From an uncultured bacterium (GTDB lineage: Bacteria; Chlamydiota; Chlamydiia; Chlamydiales; FEN-1388): 64,000 nt of DNA. The stretch spans positions 7,805-71,804 of the forward strand of contig CAYPCN010000004.1 in assembly GCA_964409235.1 (NCBI GenBank), in the 5' to 3' direction. Of this stretch, positions 17,420 to 17,586 are shown one piece after another. Numbering within the stretch: the stretch's first letter is position 1; each line of letters starts with the position of its first letter. The translations under genes and the position numbers were made by a program. Under the pieces are notes generated by a model. The model saw only the letters and a program-made list of their open reading frames with translations, made no database searches and was not told the DNA's origin.

Positions 17420-17515
17420 TAGCCATATGCCCTGACATATGGGAGAGGAGGTTTTTGGCGGATTCAGCCAAAAAGATCTTACTCTATCCTCCAAAAGGCA
17501 CATCGCACATGGCTC
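17420..17515 (+). repeat. palindromic intergenic element (PIE), full-length copy
   Basis: TAGCCATATGCC...GATTCAGCCAAAAAGATCTTACTCTATCCTCCAAAAGGCACATCGCACATGGCTC. Aligns end to end with 48144-48242 and, in reverse complement, with 60699-60789. Confidence 0.8.
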
Positions 17516-17566
17516 ACGCTAGGTATTAGTGTGCGGAGAAAATATTTTTTTGCTATGAACAAACAA

Positions 17567-17586
17567 GAGCCATGTGCGATATGGCT
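17567..17586. repeat. PIE mini-hairpin; exact inverted partner of the 17502-17515 arm
   Basis: GAGCCATGTGCGATATGGCT. Its first 14 nt are the exact reverse complement of ATCGCACATGGCTC at 17502-17515. Confidence 0.8.

Follow-up and report, generated by a model that had tools for sequence, protein, structure and literature searches.

The intergenic DNA around position 17420 carries a palindromic sequence that recurs, in longer and shorter versions, at other positions of the same stretch, and the locus raises the question of what kind of repeat this is and how it came to its present sites. A sequence-only reading of the whole stretch of 64,000 nucleotides analyzed here (the window) had described an unnamed family of palindromic elements with full-length, short, deleted and collapsed copies at 16 or more sites. 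It had called the family REP/BIME or MITE-like, and had suggested a test for target-site duplications (TSDs) and a comparison with Rfam. The sequences quoted in that reading were present at their coordinates when the DNA was read directly, and its central claim of an unnamed, repeated palindromic family with long, short and truncated copies was borne out by counts above chance and by the lack of an Rfam match.

The window has a G+C content of 50.3% and contains chlamydial housekeeping genes for a CT398-like protein, BamA, OmpH, LpxD, CTP synthase and RuvX, together with those for RNase R, CorA, QueH and GlgX. Many of its open reading frames (ORFs) have no Pfam domain, and the nearest database relatives of its GlgX are at most 69% identical. 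The host is an uncultured member of the Chlamydiia without a close sequenced relative. No tRNA gene was found in the window, and a domain search of its approximately 49 ORFs found no transposase or recombinase domain, in agreement with the earlier statement that the window lacks a transposase.

Several other features of the window were recorded. Three consecutive DUF502 genes lie at 5688-7711. Tandem paralogues are encoded at 14033-15724 and 15709-17367 (orphans of 563 and 552 aa, with repeats spaced 1703 nt) and at 24214-25383 and 25399-26619 (orphans of 389 and 406 aa, with repeats spaced 1224 nt). A 40-nt inverted repeat with 95% complementarity (656-695 and 19210-19249) joins the ORF region 534-1031 to the interior of a 1656-aa orphan gene (17623-22593). 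Direct repeats of 46 nt (85% identity) and 31 nt (84%) at 52209-52397, within a 682-aa orphan gene (51947-53995), suggest a repeated protein module.

We then counted the repeat in the window against shuffled sequence. The 18-nt terminal consensus GAGCCATGTRCGATGTGG occurred 8 times with up to three mismatches (0.05 expected), the 14-mer ATCGCAMATGGCTC occurred 12 times with up to two mismatches (1.3 expected), and the 21-mer TCCTCCAAAAGGCACATCGCA occurred 3 times with up to three mismatches (0 expected). Intergenic DNA extended by 15 nt on each side, which makes up about 8% of the window, held 10 of the 15 GAGCCAT heptamers. When the 27 intergenic regions of the window were compared all against all by BLASTN, every pair between regions belonged to the repeat family. 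The sole other match was a self-complementary hairpin at 59107-59138 (AAAAAAGGGGCTTTGAAAAAAGCCCCTTTTTT), which lies directly after the gene at 58439-59086 with A- and T-runs flanking both sides; it looks like a bidirectional intrinsic terminator unrelated to the family.

Profile searches of the 64-kb window returned 8 solid copies and about 7 weak ones, so that about half of the "16 or more sites" stand as solid. A profile of the three long copies found 13846-13885 and 9998-10074, at the E values given in Table 1, as well as 17564-17588, and a right-end profile added 31537-31579 and 46005-46045 and, more weakly, 57060-57091 and 24182-24209. A 30-nt match between 13854 and 17486 was 97% identical. 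The solid copies are all intergenic or overlap just the final codons of a gene, and no profile match with E < 0.01 lies inside an ORF. The earlier statement that every copy is intergenic or clips only last codons is therefore true of the solid copies, but the site at 38741, where a 14-mer additional to the weak fragment at 38905-38941 spans 38742-38755, is inside the listed BamA ORF. Eight of 11 sites are situated 0 to 60 nt 3' of a stop codon. The orientation relative to neighboring genes is mixed, copy C being opposite to copies A, B and E. The family makes up about 15% of the intergenic DNA in the window. Since the copies are just 74 to 81% identical to the 145-nt reference, the family is old. 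These results show that the repeat family in the window is real.

Table 1. Copies of the repeat family, weaker sites and the neighboring RNA gene in the window
Feature	Position	Strand	Composition	Match	Left/right 5-nt flanks	Flank identity
Copy C, full length, 145 nt	60696-60840	-	Both terminal inverted repeats and both internal halves		TCTAT/TCTAT (60841-60845/60691-60695, - strand reading)	5/5
Copy B, 99 nt	48144-48242	+	Both terminal repeats and right internal half; left internal half absent		GTGTT/GTGCT	4/5
Copy F, 61 nt	45985-46045	+	Two terminal repeats (13/15 complementary) and short unrelated centre; both internal halves absent		CCTCA/TCTCA	4/5
Copy E, 84 nt	31497-31580	+	Left terminal repeat, left internal half and short right terminal repeat; right internal half absent		CTAAT/ACAAT	3/5
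Copy A	17390-17515	+	Right terminal repeat with the right half; left internal half in part (17390-17416)		CTCCT/ACGCT (left boundary of the earlier reading, not a real terminus)	2/5
Copy D, degenerate	9996-10082	-	Right terminal repeat CACATCGCAAATGTCTC	Profile E 2.6e-6
Copy G, right end only	13844-13883	+		29/30 identical to copy A; E 6e-8
Copy H, solo left terminal repeat	17567-17584	+	GAGCCATGTGCGATATGG	1 mismatch to 18-nt consensus
Copy I, solo terminal repeat	36350-36367	-	GGGCCATGTGCGACATGG	3 mismatches to 18-nt consensus
Weak right-end-like segment	57060-57091	+	CTTCTAAAAATTCACATAGCAAATGGCGC	Arm profile E 0.007
Weak, probably degenerate internal family fragment	38905-38941	+	CTCTATCCTCGAAAAG	69% match; 3 matches vs 0.02 expected
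Small hairpin directly after stop codon	44969-44986		GAGTCATTTGCATGGCTC	Not significant alone
RNase P RNA gene, bacterial class A	31591-31986			Sole Rfam match in window

The anatomy of the family was established with the 145-nt copy C as the reference. Copy C had been placed at 60699-60789, a span that missed its left arm some fifty nucleotides beyond; the true left arm, GATCCATGTACGATG, lies at 60840-60826, and the terminal inverted repeats of the copy read GATCCATGTACGATGTGG ... CACATCGCAAATGGATT. Copy C shares 83% identity with its reverse complement and, folded as DNA, forms a single long hairpin of -31.9 kcal/mol (z -6.09), with none of 200 shuffles folding as well. Its two arms contain one compensatory change, a T-A pair in place of G-C at position 3, which could reflect either selection on the hairpin or descent from a variant master copy. 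Copy B was 81% identical to copy C (RNA fold z -5.47; DNA fold z -4.0). Among copies B, C, E and F, the arms are complementary at 10 to 13 of 15 positions. Arm spacing across the copies ranges from about 30 to 110 nt, and copy lengths range from 61 to 145 nt. The arm pairings counted in the sequence-only reading (13/15 at 45985, 10/10 at 48144 and 11/15 at 17420) were correct.

At the locus from which the analysis started, nhmmer with copy C as the query aligned model positions 42-143 to 17390-17513 (E 1.7e-12; 74% identity). The full form had been taken to begin at 17420, but the alignment to copy C starts at 17390, and the sequence TAGCCATATGCC at 17420 is not a terminus but part of an additional internal hairpin of about 24 nt, CCATATGCCCTGACATATGG. 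A left terminal repeat of copy A, sought at 17344-17362, showed weak resemblance only and no TSD. Copy D has ATGCCCTGACATAT in common with copy A, and the two, which share the extra internal hairpin, make up a subfamily; the left end of copy D, sought at 10098-10128, likewise gave a weak, possibly degenerate resemblance and no TSD. The arm ATCGCACATGGCTC (17502-17515) does recur as an exact reverse complement at 17567-17580 (14/14, with 51 nt between), as had been noted. The second site, described as a collapsed hairpin, is instead a solo left end, copy H, which faces the right end of copy A across the 51 nt. Copy H also folds into a small hairpin with a T-rich run after it, and 17566-17588 scores as terminator-like.

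The remaining copies are shorter. Copy E, which had been overlooked, aligned with model positions 2-71 of copy C (nhmmer with C as the query, E 1.9e-7; 79% identity). Its first base lies 1 nt past the stop codon of the gene for the CT398-like protein, and 10 nt separate its end from the RNase P RNA gene. Copy E fills the whole 95-nt spacer (31497-31591) between that stop and the RNase P RNA 5' end, so that rnpB transcription must start within the element or pass through it. Copy F lies upstream of glgX, in the divergent promoter region (arm-profile E 1.5e-5; fold z about -3). It had been aligned with the long copies over its whole length; its arms and a CCAAAA motif are indeed common to the other copies, but these are all that is shared, and the full-length profile gave an E of 0.58. 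Copy G begins 5 nt past the stop of a histone-deacetylase-like gene. Copy I, at a site (36347) also described as a collapsed hairpin, is a solo end at three mismatches that forms a 7-bp hairpin directly after the bamA stop. The start codon of a BrkB-family gene (57087) is within the right-end-like sequence ..CACATAGCAAATGGCGC, whose ATGG supplies the start, and an old insertion may thus have provided the start of this gene.

Other proposed members fell away as individual sites. No exact GAGCCAT-N(0-20)-ATGGCTC occurs in the window. The supposed collapsed copies at 30661 and 44969 were individually not significant in the arm profile, and the same was true of the supposed arm fragments at 12811, 13997 and 38741. 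Arm-profile E values for 44969-44986, 30661-30685, 24182-24209 and 13998-14019 ranged from 0.06 to more than 1.

If the copies were inserted, their flanks may retain target-site duplications. Element boundaries were fixed at the outermost base of GAGCCAT and of ATGGCTC, and five bases were compared on each side (Table 1). The flanks matched at 16 of 20 positions over the four two-armed copies, a small sample. When copy A was included, 18 of 25 positions matched, where 26% would be expected at each (binomial 2e-6). The true pairing of left and right flanks was the best of 120 permutations, and cross-pairing between copies gave 30%. Flank lengths of 2 to 4 and 6 to 10 nt gave matches of 10 to 53%, and only the 5-nt register showed the duplication. 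No TSD was found at copies A and D or at any of the solo ends and small hairpins.

The flank sequences differ among the copies, which indicates that they derive from the target and not from the element. In the four or five copies concerned, the 5-bp flanks are the signature that points to a transposase with a 5-nt target stagger. Transposition of the HUH/tyrosine type (RAYT/IS200) leaves no target duplications. The 5-bp duplications therefore argue for insertion by a staggered-cutting transposase and for a MITE-like rather than a REP/RAYT-like element. The family is short and non-coding, with shared terminal inverted repeats and, on this small sample, a TSD of fixed length. It encodes nothing of its own and matched neither a protein nor an Rfam family. 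Taken together, these features make an old, lineage-specific, non-coding MITE-type family in an uncultured Chlamydiia genome the probable explanation.

To follow the family at one gene, we compared the glgX loci of three relatives, contigs L001, L002 and L020, whose GlgX proteins are 67 to 69% identical to that of the window. At the 3' end of glgX, the first 13 nt of copy B encode the last residues of GlgX and its stop codon (..SSLVL-SHL-stop), so that three codons and the stop come from the element. The GlgX proteins of ten relatives have ..SSLVL and then 2 to 10 variable residues at their C termini. The SHL tail and stop in the window, encoded by the element end, fit an insertion. Against this, when copy B and one copy of the TSD were removed in silico, no nearby glgX stop was regained, and the frame continued for about 100 codons. 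Further 3' of glgX, positions 48310-50399 encode two proteins without Pfam domains, an orphan of 519 aa and an acidic one of 184 aa; the synteny of this gene pair is kept in L002 and L020, and the two proteins may, speculatively, be a chlamydial effector/chaperone pair.

Upstream of glgX, the flanking promoter-proximal blocks are kept in the window and the three relatives. The first block, CTGTCCTrGGATA, was read in the window and L020 only; the second is built on the core TAAATATTsrATAAAGA, with AGCGTAAATATT... in the window and in L020. What separates the blocks is copy F in the window, a perfect palindrome of unrelated sequence with 29-nt arms in L020, and yet other inverted repeats in L002 and L001, so that the palindrome in this spacer differs among all four lineages compared. 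This pattern, too, fits an insertion. The profile of the window repeat found no match in the three related contigs, and a likeness between the window core AGATTCGGCCGAAAA and AGATTCGATTCCGAAAAAA of L002 was not supported by profile search. Elsewhere, the window spacer 50399-50443 has no element, and its counterpart in L002 is an element-bearing spacer of 518 nt; apart from the glgX spacer, those that bear elements in L002 measure just 43 nt or 0 nt in the window.

Each related contig carries its own, unrelated palindromic repeat families, for example one with termini AACTCACCTTACGCACTTTTTGTC in L002. Palindromic intergenic repeats were seen in L002 at 8903-9065, 16433-16591, 20902-20937, 9777-9945 and 14434-14655, a palindrome in L020 at 2361-2428, and inverted repeats in L001 at 11166-11334 and about 8940-8995. 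These palindromes are the same kind of element in the same gene neighborhood as the window family, but their sequences are unrelated to it. There is a small chance that the same sites were filled independently by unrelated palindromes in each lineage, either by the targeting of pre-existing hairpins or terminator or promoter DNA or by the repeated replacement of a selected hairpin.

It could be argued that the sites in the window are selected functional hairpins, such as 3'-end RNA stabilizers, terminators or protein-binding palindromes, that resemble each other by chance and are not insertions. The position of most sites just past a stop codon, the stable folds, the terminator-like solo end at 17566-17588, the compensatory pair change in copy C and the presence of some palindrome upstream of glgX in each of four related lineages are all in keeping with this proposal. 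However, no T-run follows the hairpin in the full copies, and when intrinsic terminators were considered as the identity of the family, only the solo end 17566-17588 scored. The arm spacing is incompatible with a fixed operator, and together with the mixed orientation relative to transcription it tells against both an operator and a dedicated cis-regulatory RNA. In the relatives, the orthologous sites hold unrelated sequences, some orthologous sites are empty, and the TSDs indicate insertion. We consider functional hairpins of this kind unlikely as the source of the family. The proposal is compatible with a secondary exaptation of a mobile element and leaves the origin of the repeats unexplained. 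Readings of the repeat as attC/integron, CRISPR or operator sequences were ruled out by sequence, spacing and gene context.

Slightly less likely still is that the arms are inverted REP units, with the doublet moved as single-stranded DNA by an IS200/IS605-like RAYT encoded elsewhere and the solo arms being decaying singlets. Doublets of inverted arms 30 to 110 nt apart do form long hairpins, they coexist with solo arms, they are extragenic and near gene ends, and the architecture resembles that of REPINs as described in PMC3116915. A REP unit is a 20- to 40-nt imperfect palindrome with a terminal GTAG (or CGTC) tag (PMC3733652). The arm GAGCCATGTRCGATGTGG, by contrast, is not itself an imperfect palindrome and carries no terminal GTAG/CGTC tag, 5-bp direct duplications flank the two-armed copies, and the window has no Y1 transposase domain. 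Of the earlier "REP/BIME or MITE-like," then, the MITE half was supported by the 5-bp TSDs, and the REP/BIME half was not, given the lack of self-palindromic arms and of the tag. An origin of the family in coincidental likeness among short GC-balanced palindromes, or in an assembly artefact, is hardly credible and is already refuted for the eight solid copies: the short sites at 30661, 44969, 12811, 13997 and 24182 are individually not significant, but three copies align over 90 to 100 nt at 74 to 81% identity, the 18-mer count stands far above chance, the 30-nt match is 97% identical, and the repeats lie within a single contig among conserved syntenic genes.

The MITE-type reading was also compared with known systems. 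Correia/NEMIS elements of Neisseria, ERIC/IRU elements of enterobacteria and RUP elements of Streptococcus pneumoniae are, like the window family, non-coding sequences of 60 to 150 nt with terminal inverted repeats that form a single long hairpin. They occur, like the family within the 64-kb window, in many intergenic copies near gene ends, have long forms and internally deleted short forms as well as target-site duplications, and lack a transposase of their own. They differ in that there is no sequence similarity, and the window family is in the Chlamydiia with a 5-bp TSD that varies in sequence, whereas the duplication made by Correia and RUP elements is TA. REP/BIME/REPIN sequences with RAYT share extragenic palindromic repeats, with inverted doublets and singlets near gene 3' ends; the window family differs in its arms, which are not self-palindromic and have no GTAG/CGTC, in its 5-bp TSDs and in the lack of a RAYT in the window. 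Rickettsia palindromic elements (RPEs) are palindromic repeats of 100 to 150 nt from another obligate intracellular lineage, with several frames open across the element, as here. RPEs are typically inserted in frame within protein-coding genes, whereas no solid window copy lies inside an ORF and the copies only clip gene 3' ends (glgX).

Searches outside the window returned no relatives of the family. The exact 22-mer core CCAAAAGGMACATCGCAMATGG had no occurrence in 185,579 representative genomes, among which the source genome is not included, or in JGI metagenomes. The relaxed pattern AAAGGNANNTCGCANATGGCTC gave 17 single matches in metagenomes, with G+C contents of 32 to 67% and none extending past the pattern; one pair was in duplicated coding sequence, and all 17 were attributed to chance. 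When the element was translated in six frames and compared with 5.8 billion proteins, nothing appeared at E ≤ 10, and distant BLASTN against a plasmid collection gave no match. In the Rfam comparison of 17370-17625 the best scores were 9 to 20 bits against thresholds of 33 to 100, and no family explained the repeat at gathering or permissive thresholds. No parent element with these termini was found, and no description of MITEs in Chlamydiae or Chlamydiia was found in the portion of the literature covered. To our knowledge, no IS family summarized in ISfinder combines GAG... termini with 5-bp duplications.

The sequence family is new, and the kind of element is ordinary and known. The history that fits best would begin with a master copy, a near-perfect non-coding palindrome of about 145 nt that is bounded at each end by an inverted repeat of about 18 nt, 5'-GAGCCATGTRCGATGTGG in the inward direction. 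The terminal repeats would be recognized by a transposase whose gene lies, or once lay, elsewhere in the genome; acting in trans, it would cut the target with a 5-nt stagger and thereby produce the 5-bp duplication. Because the window has no transposase and no parent element was found, mobilization in trans is an assumption, and the type of transposase and the present inactivity of the family are likewise deduced. Copies would insert into intergenic DNA, mostly 0 to 60 nt from stop codons, and survive at harmless sites, mainly directly 3' of stops. Later, one internal half would have disappeared from some copies (the 99-nt and 84-nt forms) and both halves from another (the 61-nt form), and the loss of one whole end would have left the solo ends at 13844, 17567 and 36350; such losses are to be expected since palindromic DNA is unstable. 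The present-day effects, which are the tail and stop of glgX, the hairpins at eight gene ends and the position of copy E upstream of the RNase P RNA, would be incidental.

No new mechanism is implied by the family. For annotation, it explains why GlgX has an odd C terminus, it may explain one gene's start codon, and it accounts for spurious ORFs that cross these spacers. If a selected hairpin were repeatedly replaced at the glgX sites, the palindromes there would be a functional element turning over in structure, not junk insertions. The copies could be useful as markers of strains and, in an intracellular lineage, as a record of past transposase activity. The family indicates that environmental chlamydiae can carry dense, lineage-specific MITE-like repeats, whereas the pathogenic Chlamydiaceae are repeat-poor.
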